In this document: one piece after another, positions 3,561 to 55,590 of the stretch
How positions within the stretch are numbered: position 1 is the stretch's first letter
Layout of the letters: each line of letters starts with the position of its first letter
Assembly (NCBI GenBank): GCA_951406725.2
Contig: OX597823.1
Span: forward strand, 104,718,001 to 104,782,000
Reading direction: 5' to 3'
DNA: 64,000 nucleotides
Source: Octopus vulgaris
Taxonomy: Eukaryota
Notes under the pieces: model-generated
Database searches by the model: none
What the model was told of the DNA's origin: nothing
The model's input: the letters and a program-made list of their open reading frames with translations, nothing else
Made by a program: the position numbers and the translations under genes

Positions 3561-4205
3561 AAATATGATTCAGTAAAGAAATCATTTGTGTCCATGAGTT
3601 GAGCGGTGATGAGCAAGCAAACCAGCGGAGATTGTGGCTCGTTGATTTTTGTTGTTGTCACTTAAAGCATGCAGAACCCATGCTCCATACTTCTGAACCT
3701 TTCCCATCGAGTAAAGATGCTTCTCTATAGCAGTGTGGGAGCATTCCATTTTCTCTGCCAGTTCCATTGTTGTTTGATGAGAATTTTTGTGCAAAAGTTG
3801 GTTTAATTGCTCTTCATCAAACTCAACTGGACGGCCAGAATGAGGTGCATCTTTGAGGTCAAAATTTCCATTTTTGAACTTGGTATACCAATCATTAACA
3901 GTTTCATCTATGGCACCCTCTCCATACACAGCACAAATGTCGCAAGAAGCTTTTGTGGCCTTAAAACCTTGATTAAAAGCAAAAAGGAGGTGTTTAAAAT
4001 GCTCATTTTTCTTAACTTGACATTCCATTTTAATGATCTGAAAATAAAAAAAATTAACTAAAATTAACTAGAAAAAAAACCAAAACAAAATAGATTCGAA
4101 AATGATTCAAAAATAGAATTCACAAAAAAAACAGATTCCAAAATTTAAACATTCGATAGATTCCAAAATTTTAAAAAATGGCAGGAACTTAGTTGCCAAC
4201 CCAAT
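3561..4205 (-). mobile_element. Truncated mariner transposon (TIR + transposase N-terminal HTH, ORF 3582-4028)
   Basis: ORF has mariner motifs WYTKFKNG..LKDAPHSGRP and WVLHAL (WVPHEL-like); TIR-like attgggttggcaactaagt at the right end beside a TA run. Confidence 0.9.
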
Positions 4206-8284: not shown

Positions 8285-9581
8285 CGAGGGTGAGTCAAAA
8301 ATTATATGCCCTCTTGCTTTTCAATGTATTTACACGAAAGCGGGTGATAAACAAGTATGTCCTTTTTTCTATACAATCTCCTTCTTTTTCGACGCACTTG
8401 CACAAGAGATCCACAAGCTTGCGTATTCCCTCCTAGAAGAAGGTTTTCAGTTGGACGTGCAACCATTTATACACCGCTTCCTTCACATCTTCATTCATAG
8501 GAAATCAACATCCTCATAAACCATCTTTGAGCAGTCCAAAGATATAATAGTCAGAAGGAGTGAGATCTGGGCTGTAGGCAGGGTGTTCCAGCACCTCAAA
8601 ACCCAATTGATTAATGGTTTCAATGCTCTGGGTGGCTGTGTGTGGCTGTGCATTGTCATGCAGCAACAAAACTTTCTTCAACAACAAGCTTTGGCGTTTG
8701 GTGGAAAGTGCTGGCTTTAGTTTGTCAGCTAGCAAGGCACTGTACTTTGCACTGTTGATCGTACACTTCTTTTCCAAGTAGCCTTCCAGTATAGGCCCTT
8801 TGAGTCCCAAAAATGGTTAGTGTCACCTTTCCCATGGAAGACTGAGTCTTGAATTTCTTTGTCACTGGTGAGCCAGAATGTTTCCACTCCATACTCTGTC
8901 TTTTGGATTCTGCTTCATAATGATGGACCCGCTTTTCATCTCCTACGACTATTCTGCTTAAAAATTCCTTGCCCTCATTGTTGTAGCGATCAAGTAAGCG
9001 TTGGCAGACTTCAAGACGTTTGTGCTTGTGCTCTGCAGTAAGCTCTCTTGGCACCCATCTTGCACAGACTTTATAGAAGCTGAGCTCATCATGGATGATT
9101 TGATAGGCAGAGCTGTGACTAATCTGCAGAAAAAAGCTACTTCATCAATGATAACTCGCCGGTTCACCATTACACTCTCTTGAGCTTGCTGAATCATCTC
9201 ATCAGTGGTGGAGGTTGACAGACACCCTGCTCACTCTTCATGCATCCGTTGACTTTTAAACTTCTTGATCCACTCATACACACTTATACACAGTAGTGCA
9301 CTGTCCCCATATTGTACTAAAAGCCTCCGATGAATTTCAGCACCTGACACACCTTCCGACCAGAGAAATTGGATCACTGTTCTTTGTTCTTTGGTGCACA
9401 TTGCAAGTGGAGCAGCCATTCTAACACTGTAAAGCCAGTACGAAAAATAGCGCGATCAGGATCAAGCACCAATCACATGACCACAATAGTACCAACTTTA
9501 AGCATGCATATGCAGAAGGCAGCATGACAATAATAAAGATATGTTATGGTAAAAGTGTGGGTAAATTTTGACTTCCCCTCA
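8285..9581 (-). mobile_element. Full-length but decayed mariner transposon (~1.3 kb)
   Basis: Imperfect TIRs (cgagggtgagtcaaaaatt / aattttgacttcccctca) with TA flanks; frameshifted transposase with GDEKRVHHY, HDNAQPH, YSPDLTPSDY motifs. Confidence 0.92.
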
Positions 9582-20137: not shown

Positions 20138-20846
20138 CAGTTCTATATTTAAGATATGAGGAATTATGTACATTATTTACATTATTTACATCTGAAGGAT
20201 ATTTGTCCTCATCTTGTTTGTTGTTAACACAACGTTTCGGCTGAAATAACCTCCAGCAAATATCCCCTTTGAGTAAAACCACCAATAGAAGAGAATATGA
20301 CCAAGAACTGTGTGTACTACATCCCATGCAGGTGTAGTAGGTTATACAAAGGCGAAACATGTTTCCCCCTCAAAATAAGGGTAGACGAACATCGCAAAGC
20401 TGTGACACAGGGAGATATTGATAAATCGGGTATAGCTGATCATGTATGGAAAAATGGAGACCACCTCCACCTGTGGGGTGAAGTTAAAATAATAGACAGA
20501 GAGCACCACTGGAAAATACGAAAACTAAAAGAAGCAGCACATATGCTAGGGCACAACAACCTCCTAAGCAGACCGACTGCAGATATGAGTAGCATATAGG
20601 AACCGGTATTAAGGAAGGATAGAAAAATATTAGATTTATAAGACCTAAAATTCACTCCATAATTGCCCACGGGCAAATGGTGTAGTGGTTAAGTAGTTAA
20701 GAATGTGGTTAAGAATGCGGGCTACTAACCCCAAGATTCCGAGTTCGATTCCAAGCTGTGACCTGAACAATAATGGTGGTGGTGGTGGTGGTGGTGGTGG
20801 TGGTGGTGATGATGATGATGATGATCTCACTTAGGAATGAGAACCT
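20138..20846 (+). mobile_element. Penelope-like element: inverted partial pLTR (20138-20257) + GIY-YIG C-terminus (20297-20642) + start of pLTR with tRNA-like head
   Basis: VYYIPCRCSRLYKGET..RVDEHRK..SGIADHVW..RKLKEAAHM; inverted 5' pLTR is typical PLE architecture; same pLTR family as 41393-42269. Confidence 0.85.
20671..20764 (+). promoter_or_regulatory. tRNA-derived Pol III promoter-like segment within a PLE pLTR
   Basis: Box A-like tggtgtagtgg, anticodon-arm-like ggg-ctactaa-ccc, box B gagttcgattcc; no acceptor stem; copies at 41570-41642(-) and 41668-41741(+). Confidence 0.7.
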
Positions 20847-21360
20847 CTGAAGAAGGCTGTCATCAGCCAGGTTTTTCATTGTCCACCAAATCGCTCTCGC
20901 CAACCCTGAAGGGGAGCTGGGGCAATTGCTTTGTAGATGAATTCTCCTGGTTGACGATGGAGGGCATGACCCAGCCAATGTCTCATTAGGATGACTTGTC
21001 TTTCAGTCTTTGCGACTTTTTCAACTTAGATTAAGGCATGAAAAACAATTAAATTGAGGAAAAATTAAATGAAATGTCTTTTAAAAATATTTCTATAGTT
21101 TCCAAATACGAGGGACATTTTCCTTTTTTTCTCTCTGTTGCTGTCTCTCTTTTTTACTCATGTTTTTCTTTGTTTTTCTTGCTTTACTCAGACCCTCTGA
21201 TGTCTCTGGCAATGGACCTGACTGACTTGGAAGGATCGTTGAAAAAGTCATATAGACTGAAACTGGTACTAAAATGTTCTTCATGATAAAATTATTTTAG
21301 TATTTTCTACCTTGTCTTATTTTGCATAAATACATACATACATAGTACATACATACATAA

Positions 21361-26873: not shown

Positions 26874-29800
26874 TCAGCGGCACGGGGGCAACGAGGTCCG
26901 GGGTACTTTGGGGATCGGGGTATTTTGGGGATCCAGGGTACTTTGGGGATCCGGGGTACTTTGGGGATCCGGGGTACTTAGAATGGGTAGGGGGGTACTT
27001 AGAATGGGTAGGGGGGTACTTAGAATGGGTAGGGGGTATGTGGAATTGCTGCAGAAAGCAGCCCGGGTCTTTGTAGTCACAGCATATCTCCAGAGATCTC
27101 GGTCCTTCGCCATTGCCTCAGTGAGGCCCAATGCTCTGAGGTCATGCTTGACCACCTCATCCCATGTCTTCCTGGGTCTACCTCTCCCCCTGATACCTTC
27201 AACTGTTTGGGAGTGGCACTTCTTCACACATCTCTCTTCATCCATCCGCAGCACATGACCATACCATCGCAAGCGTCGCTCTTGCACACCACATCTGATG
27301 CTTCTTATATCCAGCATTTCTCTCAGGATACTTACACTCTGTTTTGCGTGCACACTGACACTACACATCCAGCGGATCATGCTAGCTTCATTTCTTTCAA
27401 GTCTACGCATGTCTTCTGCAGTCACAGCCCATGTTTCATTACCGTGAAGCATGGCAGTTCGCACACATGCATCATATAATCTACCTTTTGCTCTGAGGGA
27501 GAGGCCTTTTGTTGCCAGTAGGGGTAGGAGCTTTCTGAACTTTGCCCAGGCTATTCGTATTCTAGTGGTGATACTCTCTGTGCATCCACCTCCGCTACTA
27601 ACTTGGTCTCCCAGGTAGCGGAAACTATCAACTACTTCTAGTTTCTCTCCCTGGAGTGTGATGGAATCTGTTTTCTGAGTGTCTGTTGTGTCTATTGTCC
27701 CTGTGCATCTGCCGCACATGTAAGCTATCTTATCTGTTAATTTCCCTTTAATGTTGCTGCACCTCTTATGTGTCCATAACTTACATTGGGTGCATCTTAT
27801 GGAGTTTCTACCTGTACCTTTCCTACAGGTTGAGCAGGGCCACCTACCCGAGGGGATGTGTGTTGAGTACCTCTTGCTGCTTACTAATACTTTGGTCTTT
27901 GCTACATTTATTCTAAGGCCCTTTGATTCCAACCCTTGCTTCCATACCCGAAATTTCTCTTCTAGTTCCGGTAGTGATTCTGCTATGAGAGCTAGGTCAT
28001 CGGCATAGAGGAGCTCCCAGGGGCATCCCATTTTGAATTCCTCTGTTATTGCTTGAAGGACTATGATGAACAAAAGGGGACTGAGGGCTGAGCCCTGGTG
28101 CACACCTACTTCTACTCGGAATTCTTCACTATATTCGTTGCCAATCCTAACCTTGCTAACAGCCTCTCTGTATAGAGCCTGTACAGCCCTTATTAGCCAT
28201 TCTTCAATCTCCAGTTTCCGCATCGACCACCAGATAAGGGAACGGGGAACCCTGTCAAAGGCTTTCTCCAAGTCTACAAAAGCTATGTAGAGGGGTTTAT
28301 CTTTAGCTAGGTACTTCTCCTGCAGTTGTCGGACCAGGAATATAGCATCAGTGGTGCTTCTACCTGGTACAAAACCGAACTGCATTTCATCTAAACAAAT
28401 TCTCTCCCTAATGAGATTGGTTATGACCTTCTCTGAGACCTTCATCACCTGGTCCAACAGTTTGATACCTCTGTAGTTATTTCTATCTAGAGCATCACCC
28501 TTACCCTTGTAGCAGTTGACTATGGTACTGCTGCACCAGTCATTGGGTATGGCTCCATTGTGAACTACCTGGTTTACAATGCGGGTGACTATGGCATGGC
28601 CCACATAGCCAGCTGTTTTAAGCATCTCAGCAGTGATTCCTGATAGGCCAGGGGCTTTGCCTGGTTTCATATCCTTAATTGCCTTATCTACAAGGGAGCT
28701 GTCTATTCGGGTAGCTGGTCCCTCTACTGGGTCAACATTTGGCAGGCTCTCCTCCTCCCATTCATTCTCCTCATTTAGCAGTCTTTCATAATGGCTTCTC
28801 CAAGCCTCTTTCTTTTCACTAGTAGTAAAAGCAAGTGCCCCATCATCCATGCGGACACATTTCTCTCCTATAACATCGCTATTTTCTCTGACACACTGTC
28901 TGGCAATCCGAAATACTTCAGCTCTTTGATCCTCGCGACGCTGGACATTGGCAAACTTCTTCTTTTCTGCTACATCTTTGGCAATGTATACCTGCCGCCC
29001 AGCCTCCCTTTTGGCTATCTGGTACAGTTCCCTGCTGCCCCCATCCTTCCAGGCTTTCCAGGCCCGTCTCTTTTCACAGATGGCTTTATCTACTGCACTA
29101 TTCCACCACCACGTAATTCTAGGTCTGGAAGGGACTTTGCACCATCCACAAACTTGGTCTGTGGCACTCAACAAGCTGTCCCGTAGGAATTCCCAGCTAC
29201 CTTCTATGTCTGACGTCTGAAGCTCCTCTTCCCTCTCATCAAATTTCTTGATGAGTATGTCCCTAAATTTCTGACCATGCGAAGGGTTCTTTAGCCTCCA
29301 AATCCTTCTTTTCTGGATTGGTTTGTTTCTTGGAGTCCTTCTGGCCTCAAGCTTAAAGTCACTGATGATTAGTCTATGCTGAGGGATACATTCTTCACCC
29401 GGGAGGGTCTTTGTATTCAAGAGCAACCCTGCATCCCGTTGTCTGGTGAGGATGAAGTCTATTTGGCTAGCGGAGTCTCCTGACTGATAAGTTATAAGGT
29501 GGCAGACTGGCTTCTTGAAGTTAGTGTTGCAGATTGAAAGGTTACATGCATCACAGAATTCCAGTAGTCTAGTTCCCTCATCATTTCTGGTGCCAATACC
29601 ATATCCACCATGTACCCCAGTGAAGATACCCGATTCCCGCCCAACATGCCCGTTAAAATCTCCACCTACAAAGATGAGGTCCTTGTTACTAGTCTTTGAA
29701 GTAGCCTGCAGAAGGGTATCATAAAAGTTGTCCTTCTGATCATTTGGTAGTCCCGCTTGTGGGGCATAGGCTGAGATAATCATAGCTGTGCCACTCTGTA

Positions 29801-30200
29801 GGACCAACCTGAGCTTAAGCACTCTATCACAAACCCTGACAACCTCTATGACCTTATCCACCCATTCCTCCGCAAGGAGAATGCCTACACCCCCTACACC
29901 TTCCGCGTTACCTTGCCAGTAGAGTTTGTATCTAAGTGCCTTGCCCGTGAGGACCCTAGCCGAAGCATCTCTCCATCTTACCTCTTGTATGCAGCATACA
30001 TCAACCTGTCTTCTCTCTAGCATCTCTACAATCTCACTAGACTTGCCTGTCAATGTACCAACATTGATAGTGCCAACTCTGAAAACTGGGAAGGAGATGT
30101 GGGGGACAGGGGGGATTCGGCGCCTGAGAAGAGGAGGGTTGTAGTGGTGGTGATAGTTTTCGTGGTATTTTTCTTTTGATCTCTCTTCCAACCTGACCAC
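26874..30200 (-). CDS. RTE LINE polyprotein: APE endonuclease + reverse transcriptase + PHD finger (1108 aa, non-AUG start)
   Basis: EN motifs GTINVGTL, IQEVRW, SAYAPQ, GDFNGH, QIDFIL; RT motifs QFGF, FVDLEKAFD, GVHQGSALSPLLF, YADD; C4-H-C3 CSTC..CTQC..HKRC..CGRC; C-terminal RRLRWYGHVLRM..RGRGRPRKTW. Confidence 0.95.
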   Translation of the reverse strand: MVRLEERSKEKYHENYHHHYNPPLLRRRIPPVPHISFPVFRVGTINVGTLTGKSSEIVEMLERRQVDVCCIQEVRWRDASARVLTGKALRYKLYWQGNAEGVGGVGILLAEEWVDKVIEVVRVCDRVLKLRLVLQSGTAMIISAYAPQAGLPNDQKDNFYDTLLQATSKTSNKDLIFVGGDFNGHVGRESGIFTGVHGGYGIGTRNDEGTRLLEFCDACNLSICNTNFKKPVCHLITYQSGDSASQIDFILTRQRDAGLLLNTKTLPGEECIPQHRLIISDFKLEARRTPRNKPIQKRRIWRLKNPSHGQKFRDILIKKFDEREEELQTSDIEGSWEFLRDSLLSATDQVCGWCKVPSRPRITWWWNSAVDKAICEKRRAWKAWKDGGSRELYQIAKREAGRQVYIAKDVAEKKKFANVQRREDQRAEVFRIARQCVRENSDVIGEKCVRMDDGALAFTTSEKKEAWRSHYERLLNEENEWEEESLPNVDPVEGPATRIDSSLVDKAIKDMKPGKAPGLSGITAEMLKTAGYVGHAIVTRIVNQVVHNGAIPNDWCSSTIVNCYKGKGDALDRNNYRGIKLLDQVMKVSEKVITNLIRERICLDEMQFGFVPGRSTTDAIFLVRQLQEKYLAKDKPLYIAFVDLEKAFDRVPRSLIWWSMRKLEIEEWLIRAVQALYREAVSKVRIGNEYSEEFRVEVGVHQGSALSPLLFIIVLQAITEEFKMGCPWELLYADDLALIAESLPELEEKFRVWKQGLESKGLRINVAKTKVLVSSKRYSTHIPSGRWPCSTCRKGTGRNSIRCTQCKLWTHKRCSNIKGKLTDKIAYMCGRCTGTIDTTDTQKTDSITLQGEKLEVVDSFRYLGDQVSSGGGCTESITTRIRIAWAKFRKLLPLLATKGLSLRAKGRLYDACVRTAMLHGNETWAVTAEDMRRLERNEASMIRWMCSVSVHAKQSVSILREMLDIRSIRCGVQERRLRWYGHVLRMDEERCVKKCHSQTVEGIRGRGRPRKTWDEVVKHDLRALGLTEAMAKDRDLWRYAVTTKTRAAFCSNSTYPLPILSTPLPILSTPLPILSTPDPQSTPDPQSTLDPQNTPIPKVPRTSLPPCR
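26899..27040. repeat. In-frame 18-bp (x~4) and 21-bp (x3) tandem repeats at the LINE ORF end
   Basis: ggggtactttggggatcc and ggggtacttagaatgggtagg units; encode PQSTPD and PILSTPL repeats. Confidence 0.9.
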
Positions 30201-30427
30201 GCCGTGGGCAGGAGCTGGTGTTAGCAGTGGACATTTGTTATCGTCACTGAGTAACGTAATTAGGTAGAGGAAAGAAATACAGATATTCTAGAGTTGAGTT
30301 GGGGAGGGGGGGTCCAGTTGAGGCGGGTAATATAGGGGAGCAACCAGTGGGGAAGGTTGGGGTAAGGAGGAACGATGGCAGGAAGGGTTGGTGTAGGTTC
30401 CTAAGAAATAAAAACGTAGGATATTAC

Positions 30428-40877: not shown

Positions 40878-41447
40878 GTACATGTGTGTGTGTATTCCTA
40901 GACATATATATACACATATATAAAGTCTTCTCTTTGCGTCTGTTGGACTTATAGGAGGAGGGTGTTGCTGATCTCTGCGATCACACACCCCACGAGCCAC
41001 CATATGTTGATACCTGACATTATTCTGGGGATTCAGACTTTTATTGTTCTTCTGTCTATGTAGGATGGGTACATTATGAGCTGGTTAGTTTTACTGATTC
41101 CCACCGAATCCATCATGGCCAGCTCTTCTGTTTTAAAAAGGACAGAAATGGTACCAAAACTTTGGGTCCTTTGAATGAATTTGACATTCTCTCGGATTGA
41201 TCTCAGTGGCATTTCCACTTGAAAGTGGGAAGGTTGTTCTGCCCTCCGAAACTCCACCAAAATGCACCTATACATTACTGTTCTTCTTTCAATTTCTACC
41301 TCCACTTTGGCTGGGATTGCAAGGTTTTTTTCTCTTTTTATGAGTTTGTAGGCCTGGTCTAACATCTCTTTTTTGTTGGAGATGTCTATCTCCATTATTT
41401 ACATTATTTACAGTTGACGGATGTTTGTCCTCATCTTGTTTGTTGTT

Positions 41448-41493
41448 AACACAATGTTTCAGCTGATATACCCTCCAACCTTCTTCAGGTGTC
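41448..41493 (-). ncRNA. Hammerhead fold, mutated copy
   Basis: GACAC-CUGAAGA-A-GGUUG..CAGCU-GAAA-CAUU-GUGUU; stem III CG>CA change. Confidence 0.6.
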
Positions 41494-41742
41494 TTGGGGA
41501 AATTTCGAACCTGGGTTCTCATTCCTAAGGCATTTTTTGATGTTGTTATTATTATTATTATTATTTTCCAGGTCACTGCCTGGAATCAAGCTCGGAATCT
41601 TGGGGTTAGTAGCCCACGCTCTTAACCACTATGCCATATGCCTGTGGGCAGTTATGGAGTGAATTACGGGCATATGGTATGGTGGTTAAGAGCACGGGCT
41701 ACTAACCCTAAGATTCCGAGATCGATTCCAGGCAGTGACCTG

Positions 41743-41786
<44 letters not shown>

Positions 41787-41787
<1 letters not shown>

Positions 41788-42067
41788 TAGAATGTGGAAT
41801 CTGAAAACAGAAACAATTCCTATCATAGTAGGTGCATTAGGCATGATAAAAAAGTATTCAGACAAATACATAACAAAAACAACCAGGACTTACAAACACA
41901 TATAACATACAGAAAATTGCACTACTAGGCACTGCACACATCCTACGCAGAACACTTTCCATACAATAACCATCAGAGCATCACAACAAATCACAGCACA
42001 TACCCAAGGCACACAGAGCTGCGCTCGGTAGTGAAGTGAAAGCACGCTATAAAAATAAAACTACTGA
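41787..42067 (+). mobile_element. R4/Dong-like LINE 3' end inserted in the (AAT)n of the PLE pLTR
   Basis: MWNLKTETIPIIVGALGMIKK..IQKIALLGTAHILRRTLSIQ*; (AAT)n on both sides; near-identical to 55250-55525. Confidence 0.85.
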
Positions 42068-42144
42068 ATAATAATAATAATAATAATAATAACAACATCG
42101 AAAAATACCTTAGGAATGAGAACCCAGGTTCGAGATTTCCCCAA

Positions 42145-42190
42145 GACACCTGATGAAGGCTGGAGGGTATATCAGCTGAAACGTTGTGTT
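42145..42190 (+). ncRNA. Minimal type I hammerhead ribozyme fold
   Basis: GACAC-CUGAUGA-A-GGCUG(gaggguauau)CAGCU-GAAA-CG-UU-GUGUU; palindromic stem III; predicted cleavage after 42185. Confidence 0.78.
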
Positions 42191-43054
42191 AACAACAAAC
42201 ATGATGAGGACAAATATCCGTCAACTCTAAATAATGTACATAATTCCTCATCTCTTAAATATAGAACTGGATGTCTGTCTCATAGTACTTTTGTTGGCAT
42301 TTTGCAGCTGCTGATGCAAAAGTACTTGTTCTGCTCTCACTGTTGATGGTGGTGGTAGAATAATTCATCTTGTTACTACTAATGCTACTTCCAAATACAC
42401 CCACCTCTCTCTCTGTTGCTGGTGTTGATGTTGGTATTGGTTGTGTTCTCATTGATGTTTTTGTTGTCATTATTCATTCTGTTATTGTCTTCTCTTATGC
42501 TTCTCTGCTCCTCAATCCGTGTTGTCGGAGTTGTTATTTTCTGTGGTGATATCAGTTATCAAAGCATTTTCCTCATTTTTTCTGTTTGGGAAGTTGGCAG
42601 TTATATTTTCCTCGTCTATTCGACTATCAAGTGATTGTGTGCGCTCCATTGTGTCACCTTTCTCTGTCATAATACTTCTTTGTTCTTTGCAGTTAATTTT
42701 ATCATTGTCCATAGGGTCTGTGGTGCTTTTGGATTCGTTATAAATTTTGTCCTCAAAATTGATACTTGTGTCAGTGAAAATTAAGTTTCCATGACTTTTC
42801 CTGCTGTTACAAACTGGTTTGTTTTGCGTTAGAAGGTTATGCCTCTCCACACCATTTTTCGTTTGCAAATGTGTAAACATTTCGCAAATACTAATATTTG
42901 GACTCAAGGCCCAAGTATTATTTAACTCTTTTACTGGGGACAAAGACTATCGTCTTATGCTCCCTTTTAAACAATAATATCAATGAAAACAGTAGTTTTG
43001 ATAACAAAAATGCCTGTCAAGCTTCCACTGACGTTCTAGCCTTCCAACCAGAAG

Positions 43055-43094
<40 letters not shown>

Positions 43095-43115
<21 letters not shown>

Positions 43116-43850
43116 TAGTCAATGTGAGAGGTATAGAGAAAATAGCAAAATACCAAGACCTGGCCATTTAACTACAGAGACTTTGGAAAGTGTGGGTAAA
43201 ATGTATTGCTGTAGTTATAGGTGCATAAAGATTTGAACAGATGGACAGGGGTAATCAGTATAAAACTTAGTTTAGTGCAGCTCCAGAAAACAGTATTATT
43301 AGGGACTACTAGGATACTTAGGAGTTGTTCTTGACAACTAAGATTACTTGATGTAGCCTGATGTTGGGGATTTTTCCAACAGTCTAATCCGTTGTGTGTA
43401 GTTGGACTAATAATAATAATGATAATAGCCACTCTCCAACAGAAGGAACCTAAAGAATGGATCTGCATCGATGCAGCTATACTTGCAGACCAAAATATTG
43501 TTAAGACAGAGGATGAGAAAACTGGGAAGTACCAAAGACTTAGGATTGGAAGTGATGAGAACTCATAGAACCTCATAAGTGAGTGTGGTACTTACTGTAA
43601 TTGGTGGCATATGAGATCAATAAAAAAAAAACAAAAAACAAAAAATAAAAAAACAATATTCTGGCATCAAAAGCTGCAAATACCAAACTTCTTAGGGCGT
43701 ATCCAGATGGCAGCAATTCTTGGAACAAGCCATGTATTGAAAAAAGAGTTGTGTCTCTAAGCTGTGAGATGGGAGCTGAGACATGACATAGACATAGATA
43801 TATGAAGAGAAATTAAGCGAATAGAAAAACTAAAAATAATAATAATAATT
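43095..43850 (+). mobile_element. Two older R4/Dong-like RLE 3' fragments separated by (AAT)n
   Basis: EKIAKYQDL..LQKTVLLGTTRIL and EDEKTGKYQRL..QMAAILGTSHVLKK motifs. Confidence 0.7.
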
Positions 43851-53405: not shown

Positions 53406-54301
53406 GTACCACAAGCTTCATCATCATCATCATCACCAACACTATTACCATATCTCCACCCCTCATCATTGATACCAAACATCAGCAGGAGAGCGCTATC
53501 ATCGTCAACATCATCTCCATCGTGATCACCCATCTCTGTAATTGTCATCACCAATATCTCTGTCATCATGACCTTCACCTACTGTAACCACCACCACCAC
53601 CACCACCACCACCACCACCATCATCATCATCATCTACTATGTGTGTAAAACAAGCATTCTTCCCCTAATCTTGATTATCTAAATTACTACACGAGAATTT
53701 ACAATGGGATTTTATGATTGGCTGCTCTTTCTATCATCAATAATAATTACTTTATTCCAAACCTGGTAAAAAGCAGGACCACAAATCTGCAGGAGAGAGA
53801 GAGACATATGAATTTGGAGAATCAGCCTTTTACATGCTAACCATCTTATCAACTCCAGTAGGGGGTGGGAGACGAAGACAACCTTAAGGTTAATTCCATC
53901 TTTCATCATTTGCACAGAATTCCTCTGGCTCAAGTAATTTTATATTTATGATGGTGATGATGATGATGATGATGATAACAGTAATAATAAGAATAATGAT
54001 AATCATAATAATAATAATGTCATGTACTGTTTATCTTGATGTGAGGTCACCATGTCACGTACATACGGTTGTGATGCATGTGCCTGGTTTAGTGATGGGT
54101 AGTCATGATGGGTATACTGGGCTTTGTATATTTTACCCCAGTATCCCTTTGACAGTATGCATTGCTCTCTCACTCAATAATAATAATAGTAATGATAATA
54201 ATAATAATAATAATAATAAGGCACACAGAGCTGCGCTCGGTAGTGAAGTGAAAGCACGATATAAAAATATACTACTGAATAATAATAATAATAATAATAA
54301 T

Positions 54302-54852
54302 AAATGTCCTGATGCAGTACCAGACAGTGGCTCTCATGGCTTCTGATCTTAACTGATTGCAAGTGTTATCATGTACATTGTTTTGTCTTGGTATAAAAGA
54401 TGGCCTACAGCAAATATTCTGCTCAATACCACAGATTTGCTTGTCAGTTGTTTGACCATAACCAGTTAAGCATGTCCCTCAGCGGCTGACGATATGTGCA
54501 TCTCTGATCCCGAGCAGAAGTAGTGGTGGAGCATCATAGCCATGTGTTGAGAGGGATTCTTTGGGGTTTGGATAATTCACCTTTGGTGATATGGGTGTTT
54601 CGTTCAACATCCTTAATCCTTATTCAAGGACCTTTTGAGTGGGATGGGCTACTCGACCTGAAGAAAATTCTAACTGGACCCCACCTACAAGGTCATGTGC
54701 TGTTTATCTTGATATGAAATCATGTCGCGCACATATGGTTGTGATGCATGTGCCTAGTGTACCCTTATCAGACGGGTAGTCATGATGGGTATACTGGGCT
54801 TTGTATATTTTACCCCGGTGTCACTTTGATGGCATGCACTGCTCTCTCACTC

Positions 54853-54928: not shown

Positions 54929-54983
<55 letters not shown>

Positions 54984-55002
54984 TAATAATAATCATTATT
55001 AT

Positions 55003-55525
55003 TATTCAGTAGTTTTATTTTTATAGTGTGCTTTCACTTCACTACTGAGCGCAGCTCTGTGTGCCTTGGTTTGTTGTGATGTTCTGATGGTTACTATTGA
55101 AAGTGTTCTGCAGATATAGTTGTCAGAGATCATGAAGAAAAAAAATGCTTTCTAATTGATGTATCAATACCGGCAGATGACAACGTGTCTCTAAAAGAAA
55201 TGGAGAAACTTTCAAAATACAAAGACCTTGGAAATAGAGGTAACCAGAATGTGGAATCTAAAAACAGAAACAATTCCTATCATAGTAGGTGCATTAGGCA
55301 TGATAAAACAATATTCAGACAAATACATAACAAAAACACCAGGACTTACAAACACATATAACATACAGAAAATTGCACTACTAGGCACTGCACACATCCT
55401 AACGCAGAACACTTTCCATACAGTAACCATCAGAGCATCACAACAAATCACAGCACATACCTAAGGCACACAGAGCTGCGCTCGGTAGTGAAGTGAAAGC
55501 ACGCTATAAAAATAAAACTACTGAC
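55003..55525 (+). mobile_element. R4/Dong-like LINE 3' end (55110-55525) preceded by an inverted copy of its own 3' terminus (55003-55110)
   Basis: LIDVSIPADDNVSLKEMEKLSKYKDL..IVGALG RLE motifs; (AAT)n and (ATT)n flanks. Confidence 0.82.

Positions 55526-55590
<65 letters not shown>

Follow-up and report, generated by a model that had tools for sequence, protein, structure and literature searches.

An insertion at positions 41393..42269 of a 64,000-nucleotide stretch of Octopus vulgaris DNA (contig OX597823.1, assembly GCA_951406725.2; hereafter the window) carries tRNA-like heads, (AAT)n tracts and hammerhead motifs, and raises the question of which kind of element produced it. The original prediction took it for a SINE-like retrozyme, a short Pol III RNA processed by its own ribozyme and moved in trans by the enzymes of a Penelope-like element (PLE). 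Here we ask whether such a unit stands on its own or belongs to a larger element.

Two inverted arms within one target site duplication

The 12-bp target site duplication (TSD) said to bound the insertion is present (41381..41392 and 42270..42281, + strand), though with one mismatch (11/12 bases identical). TSDs of 9-13 bp also flank 12 of 23 two-armed copies of the family and none of the 23 swapped-flank controls. The two divergent arms, each with a tRNA-like head, (AAT)n and a hammerhead, were found where they had been placed: a tail-less left arm (41393..41665, - strand) and a tailed right arm (41666..42269, + strand), which are 94% complementary between 41394-41565 and 42073-42244 and 84% complementary between 41534-41645 and 41666-41777, and which differ at one variable site, body position 65. 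Measured against the A-box and B-box consensus, the left head (41569..41643, - strand) has kept its A box and has a damaged B box, and the right head (41668..41742, + strand), best matched by tRNA-Arg, is degenerate at the A-box position (41675-41685) and carries a fitting B-box motif within 41718-41729. The tail, about 25-31 nt long in the family, is confined to the right arm (42245..42269, + strand); exactly one arm is tailed in 78 of 92 two-armed family copies.

The heads lie back to back nearly as far apart as estimated (about 25 bp), with 24 bases between their +1 positions at 41643 (- strand) and 41668 (+ strand). The stretch is no spacer, as 22 of the 24 bases (41644..41665, - strand) are part of the element's own 3' UTR, correspond to the sequence between ORF stop and head in long copies, and belong to the left arm. 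That the unit begins at the head thus holds for the right arm, which starts at -2, and fails for the left, which starts at -22. The two arms do fold, and they would form a long duplex if the locus were transcribed from outside. A long hairpin as the function of the locus was nevertheless rejected, inversion being the family's normal insertion form. Nor does the layout call for a design of divergent Pol III units, since back-to-back arms with a one-sided tail are the published insertion pattern of PLEs, for which the available text of PMC3846280 and PMC8557442 describes an inverted arm, a one-sided tail and a pLTR (end repeat) with the first codons of the ORF.

The right arm is twice as long as the left because the 5'-truncated 3' end of a LINE (41784..42066, + strand; stop codon 41967-41969) has inserted into it. 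This would have been a later insertion into the arm's (AAT)n tract, of which a 5' part (41743..41783, + strand) and a 3' part (42067..42092, + strand) remain. The fragment matches window 55241-55552 over 280 bp at 97% identity and belongs to a non-LTR family that sits in (AAT)n tracts, nearly all of the 30 loci examined ending in (AAT)n. A 602-aa relative has RVT_1 and zf-RVT matches, and we take the family to be probably of the R4/Dong type. Further 3' fragments of this LINE lie at window 55115-55552, 54983-55111 and 54218-54303, one pair of them in inverted orientation. With 97-98% identity among its copies this LINE family is the younger one, and open frames of 602 aa are found at L284 and L285. 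The window also holds, at 43105-43330 and directly after an (AAT)n tract, a decayed 3' end from another LINE whose C-terminal motif is similar, at 26874-30287 (- strand) a 1137-aa open frame that by eye resembles an RTE-like LINE with APE and RT, and at 3582-4067 and 8725-9141 (both - strand) what are presumably mariner-like transposase fragments.

Several defects make the copy at 41393..42269 likely inert: its right arm is interrupted and has a degenerate A box, and on the left both the B box and the palindrome are damaged. It is an ordinary insertion in its family.

The repeat as the end of a coding retrotransposon

The insertion had been described as ORF-less and free of PLE coding sequence, a description that does not survive translation of its arms. 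The right arm holds the first 51 codons of a PLE ORF as an open frame starting from an ATG at 42116 (42116..42268, + strand), the left arm holds the first 43 (41394..41522, - strand), and L156 and L162, two copies close to full length, show the repeat body passing into the ORF without a break in frame. The N-terminal peptide resembles the start of a full-length homolog of 847 aa (P0009), with E values of 5e-5 over 22 residues and 9e-31 over the next 165. A second family copy at window 20140-20860, made up of an inverted tailed arm, a GIY-YIG-like 3' ORF, a 3' UTR, a head and part of the body, links the head to a coding element within the window itself, and in a search with the frame of this copy the head directly followed the GIY-YIG-like frame at 25 of 30 loci. 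It begins 29 nt past the ORF stop codon, with the RT further upstream.

A PLE-type RT is indicated by an RVT_1 match on the element's ORF, which has 148 homologs; sea-urchin and lizard proteins are 39-45% identical, and over the RT query the identity to P0044, a protein of Anolis, is 40%. The GIY-YIG call rests on an alignment by eye of the C-terminal domain (motif VYSIPCSC..LYKGET) with the C-termini of the homologs. Other hallmarks of PLEs are present, namely an ORF start within the pLTR, copies in partial tandem or inverted arrangement, a one-sided tail and a TSD, and the element runs in the order ORF (RT, GIY-YIG-like domain), stop codon, 29 nt, tRNA-derived head, (AAT)n, ORF start with hammerhead, and tail. 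Because the head comes after the GIY-YIG-like frame and the body is in frame with the ORF, we conclude from these sequence relationships that the unit is the pLTR of an autonomous PLE, and that the insertion is a head-to-head pair of such end repeats from a Penelope/Poseidon-type retrotransposon rather than a separate SINE; the Penelope/Poseidon assignment is based on similarity. By its defining features the element belongs to the PLEs and is neither a SINE nor a retrozyme, although its short copies behave as products of SINE size that Pol III likely started.

Exact 20-mers from the tail occur 6543 times in the 2.8-Gb genome, those from the head 3917 times and those from positions -27..-8 upstream of the head 951 times (reversed controls, 0). 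The family is old, its copies deviating from the column majority by a median of 5.5%. A metagenome scan with a single protein query gave no match, and a genome search for a second Poseidon family, intended as an inside control, returned mostly the same family, judged from shared places. Loci L321-L326 represent a young second PLE family with many near-identical open frames of 750-780 aa, often in head-to-head pairs.

A tRNA-derived head at which most copies begin

In good family heads 47-51 of 73 bases match the tRNA-Arg of the host (z about 5-7.5), and in the window's own heads 43-46 of 73 do (z 5-6); the panel consisted of genuine host tRNAs of six isotypes only, and a tRNA-Arg parent is provisional. 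The heads keep their A and B boxes at tRNA spacing, the two motifs lying 44 nt apart, and have lost the cloverleaf. ARAGORN reports no tRNA in the window or in 60 family loci, Rfam no tRNA or hammerhead in the window or in 10 family loci (E<=1), and minimum free energy folding yields no significant z-score and neither a hammerhead nor a cloverleaf. A tRNA-derived head with both boxes at the 5' end of the copies, the SINE-like trait of the unit, is nonetheless what the family displays.

Whether copies start preferentially at the head, the check proposed with the original prediction, was examined on contig C1 in 91 exact head matches out of the first 92 listed, with upstream extent measured against natural long copies and with the likely segmental duplicates L076/L077 and L087/L090 retained. 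They do: 76 of these 91 heads end at -26..+23, within 55 nt of the anchor, where 19% would be expected from the truncation rate of the 15 longer copies (1 per 263 nt; binomial 2e-40), and head 20-mers far outnumber upstream ones in the genome. Among the 78 copies in this sample that reach +8, 57 end at -17..+8. The commonest starts are +1 and +2 (14 of the 76 short copies among the matches listed), and the 5' ends scatter over about 40 nt rather than falling on a single base, the -22 of the window's left arm being upstream of the peak. TSDs of 10-14 bp adjoin starts at -20..+19 in 6 of 21 single-arm copies (a count without a control, four copies having no located 3' end). Clustered starts and TSD-bounded single arms together mark the head as a real RNA 5' end or a strong stop.

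One way to account for such a boundary is that an element read by Pol II carries the head in its 3' UTR as an old SINE-like passenger, with copies ended by the palindrome before the head or by a nearby Pol II start. Fold-back junctions at this short palindrome are real: a loose pattern flags 16 of the 76 short copies and inflates some negative positions. Palindromes and TATA/Inr-like motifs at the 5' side of Adineta pLTRs, with self-priming invoked, are described in the available text of PMC3846280, and the clustering of ends at the pLTR edge may be generic to PLEs. However, 60 of the 76 short copies are free of the fold-back pattern, TSD-bounded single arms start at the head, +1/+2 are the most frequent starts, and A and B boxes have been kept at tRNA spacing in heads whose cloverleaf is gone, all of which argue against a passenger. 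At L099, L139, L074 and L312 the region of the pre-head palindrome shows multi-jump junctions in which short pieces of the head are inverted or doubled, and these suggest fold-back priming at the RNA's 5' end.

Alternatively, the short copies could themselves be source genes: the PLE end would have given rise to a self-transcribed Pol III SINE or retrozyme, which the protein of the PLE mobilises in trans. Short copies with a head are about 4-5 times as numerous as long ones, they combine A/B boxes with PLE 3' ends and no T4, some of them are single TSD-bounded units, and a precedent for a Pol III promoter coupled to a hammerhead is given by the schistosome element Sm-alpha in the available text of PMC6765202. 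Yet short and long heads show no fixed difference and no diagnostic bases: long copies carry a G/A head variant at 38:28 and short copies at 82:40 (p=0.21), and three columns that differ at p<0.02 do so in error rate only, which we attribute to locus selection. Moreover, the unit forms the end of the autonomous element itself and codes for the N-terminus of its protein. Direct or tandem repeats, from which circles could be excised, occur in only 3 of the 91 head-anchored loci listed (L067, L074, L137), and inverted arms in 60. The template of the anole relative Poseidon_Ac requires the first 172 nt of the ORF, according to the available part of PMC11167929, whereas the short copies stop at about 128-153. 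We therefore hold self-transcribed short source genes to be improbable.

Two conventional classes were tried for the short copies and rejected. A tRNA-derived SINE would be a non-coding lineage with a head of its own; here the head sits on an autonomous element, the body is coding and diagnostic bases are missing. A non-LTR retrozyme would form tandem monomers that hammerheads cut into circular RNAs, where this family forms mainly inverted arms.

The arms of one insertion agree at the G/A variant in 25 of 29 pairs (p=4e-4), indicating that both derive from one source. Copies have their 3' ends at body 149-155 and 180. At body position 150 (window 42239 and its mirror), A on one arm is paired with C on the other in 38 of 58 insertions with both arms, and untailed arms often end in an extra repeat unit, which together suggest slippage at the inner RT start.

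A minimal hammerhead inside the coding sequence

The hammerhead consists of stem I, CUGAUGA, stem II, GAAA and an ACGU palindrome that replaces stem III, with a predicted cut after U 42185. The right minimal type I motif (42145..42190, + strand) has an intact core, and its predicted site between 42185 and 42186 is the one originally named; the left (41448..41493, - strand) is mutated in its ACGU dimer palindrome. Core and palindrome are intact in 91 of 327 family copies. Stems I and II pair in 97.7% of cells across 12 close copies, compared with 19-56% when slid, and no covariation was found among these 12.

To the question of whether the motif acts, 5' ends within the body are pertinent. The sample comprised 90 of the first 100 listed tail matches, leaving out the last two and eight near already sampled loci; 47 of them extend to the (AAT)n side and 43 stop within the body. 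Nine of these 5' ends fall at body 97-104, just past the predicted cut between 96 and 97, and none at 81-96. A cluster of 10 copies at body 135-136 proved to be a repeat-unit artefact and was removed together with 2 ends at position 12; with these 12 ends gone, the chance of any 8-nt window holding 9 of 31 ends is 0.003. The position of the cluster, immediately past the predicted cut, suggests in vivo hammerhead cleavage of a minority of templates, and it bears on the anole RNA-seq, in which the available text of PMC11167929 reports no cut ends. Cutting would also remove the ATG, which lies 70 nt upstream.

Headed copies span the cut site and were thus copied from uncut RNA, a further point against a retrozyme source. 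Given this and the variants that short and long copies share, the short copies are likely run-off products of the 5' end of the autonomous RNA and not a ribozyme-processed SINE. Mobilisation by the PLE RT/GIY-YIG protein accordingly stands as proposed, while its action in trans on a separate ORF-less SINE is not supported, the head being on an autonomous element, the polymorphism shared and the RNA uncut.

Terminator runs and the polymerase that reads the element

Over the 2.7-kb sense strand no T4 site is common to more than 11% of copies and 14 T3 sites are shared, in a scan projected on the natural copy L162 with coverage down to 3 copies (3-9 in the N-terminal part). Twenty long loci contain 19 T4 in 35,031 nt, or 0.54/kb, and 24 open frames contain 10 T4 runs against 37-39 expected from codon controls, the copies not being independent of each other. 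At the same 22-24% T, the second PLE family of this genome has 8-10 T4 and 2-3 T5 per 2.3-kb ORF, and the (AAT)n LINE, as a control, has 3-4 T4 per 1.8 kb. Outside the octopus, 72 Penelope-like ORFs (from 80 metagenome loci, eight, mostly short matches and one with a large insert, having been omitted) have a median of 4.34 T4/kb; none is at zero and one is below 0.54. A single T4 is found in 6 of the 72, none of these six with an A/B box in the available flank; L400, L426 and L439, with one T4 run each and no A/B box in the available flank, temper the T4 argument. No B box was found within 400 nt behind the 72 ORFs, many of which have little flank.

The chance of observing no T4 alongside 14 shared T3 sites in one lineage is about 0.01-0.03 (Markov estimate 0.010-0.018; 0.02 for one 569-codon frame, from a decayed copy that itself has 3 T4). 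At the level of sequence, this lack of T4 suggests that Pol III could read the whole element, since a short RNA alone gives no reason for clearing terminators from the ORF, and a Pol III start at the head appears plausible. With a passenger head and Pol II, by contrast, the T4 lack would be chance, which the modest p value and the six outside ORFs nearly as poor in T4 would allow, and a capped mRNA would solve translation; the abundance of T4 and T5 in the PLE control of the same genome speaks against it, and we regard this reading on balance as unlikely. For its part, a Pol III RNA without a cap would be poorly translated; read-through transcripts made by Pol II or an A-rich leader are possible routes around this.

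Three raw RNA-seq runs and one contig set were compared with L156. Reads are equal on both strands, the libraries being unstranded, their depth falls from the repeat into the ORF as genomic copy numbers do, and 76-82% of matching reads run on into unrelated sequence. No pile-up of starts at the head was seen on L156 in this unstranded material, which is unsuited to Pol III starts. The pattern fits passive inclusion in other transcripts.

A proposed run-off model for the short copies

To rationalise these observations, we propose that head-to-head end repeats of a PLE carry in their tRNA-derived head what is probably the element's own Pol III promoter, as judged from the sequence features above, and that the short copies are run-off products. 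In a tandem unit, Pol III would start a few bases upstream of the head and could read through the ORF, in which T4 is lacking. The element's protein would bind near the ORF start and reverse transcription would begin internally, about 128 or 153 nt into the ORF; by analogy with the anole relative, the 3' ends at body 149-155 and 180 would be the RT start sites. Priming at the 5'-most site would run off the RNA 5' end after about 270-290 nt to give short, SINE-like arms, priming at a downstream unit would give longer copies, and the hammerhead would likely cleave no more than a minority of the templates. Staggered nicks, one in each target strand, may serve as primers for the two arms, both copied from a common source, and an inverted pair with its TSD would result once the two cDNA ends are joined. 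The wider evolutionary claim, that a PLE swapped a Pol II for a tRNA-derived Pol III promoter, lost its terminators over 2.7 kb and by internal priming sheds thousands of SINE-like copies in cis, we put forward more tentatively, as a possibility that falls somewhat short of an even chance.

Discussion

Many features of the octopus element recur in the EN+ PLEs Poseidon_Ac of Anolis and Pen2a of Adineta, for which the available text of PMC11167929 and PMC3846280, respectively, records an ORF with RT and C-terminal GIY-YIG (a GIY-YIG-like domain in the octopus), a pLTR that includes the ORF start, a hammerhead overlapping the N-terminus, an inverted 5' arm, a one-sided tail of ~30 nt and TSDs of 9-13 bp. 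For Poseidon_Ac the same excerpts of PMC11167929 report that RT starts in vitro within the first 120 nt of the ORF, that both target strands are extended, and that ribozyme mutants still insert. Unlike both elements as described there, the octopus element has at the start of its pLTR a tRNA-derived head with A and B boxes, followed by (AAT)n; about 80% of the heads mark the 5' end of a copy, and the sense strand is without T4. None of the titles and abstracts listed from the Penelope literature describes a tRNA-headed PLE, and 'tRNA' has 0 matches in the available text of PMC3846280 and PMC4209133. The unusual feature here is a PLE pLTR with a tRNA-derived head at which most copies begin, the PLE class itself being known.

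Among non-coding elements, the schistosome Sm-alpha and Sj-alpha (PMC6765202 and PMC2770079, as far as their text was available) share with the octopus repeat a tRNA-related Pol III promoter followed by a hammerhead, and a high copy number. In these a canonical hammerhead cuts tandem transcripts into monomers, and an autonomous element that shares their head is not known from that text, whereas the octopus head sits on a coding element and most copies come from uncut RNA. Metazoan non-LTR retrozymes likewise have type I hammerheads and a proposed dependence on PLE machinery; in the available part of PMC7761336 they are tandem non-coding repeats that yield circles, in contrast to the minimal hammerhead within coding sequence and the mostly inverted pairs of the octopus. 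The TRIMp3 elements Cassandra, Helenus and Ajax place a small-RNA-derived Pol III promoter inside a terminal repeat, as here, and are non-autonomous LTR elements, unlike the octopus PLE (PMC10886601, excerpts). The octopus SINE OR2 is listed as a CORE SINE in the consulted portion of PMC4758252.

On the accepted view Pol II (or Pol I) transcribes coding retrotransposons and Pol III serves short non-coding parasites, a rule set out explicitly in the available text of PMC10886601, where the TRIMp3 author reasons that autonomous partners must use Pol II, Pol III being weakly processive. The octopus PLE, if read by Pol III, would be a counter-example to that argument; it would break the rule and raise the question of how an uncapped RNA is translated. 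If the model is true, clusters of copy starts would map both a transcription start and hammerhead cleavage in vivo, and a SINE-like swarm could arise without a separate SINE gene, its short copies being likely to be filed as SINEs by annotation pipelines. It would also open a direct route from a PLE to SINEs that join a tRNA head to a hammerhead, such as Sm-alpha.
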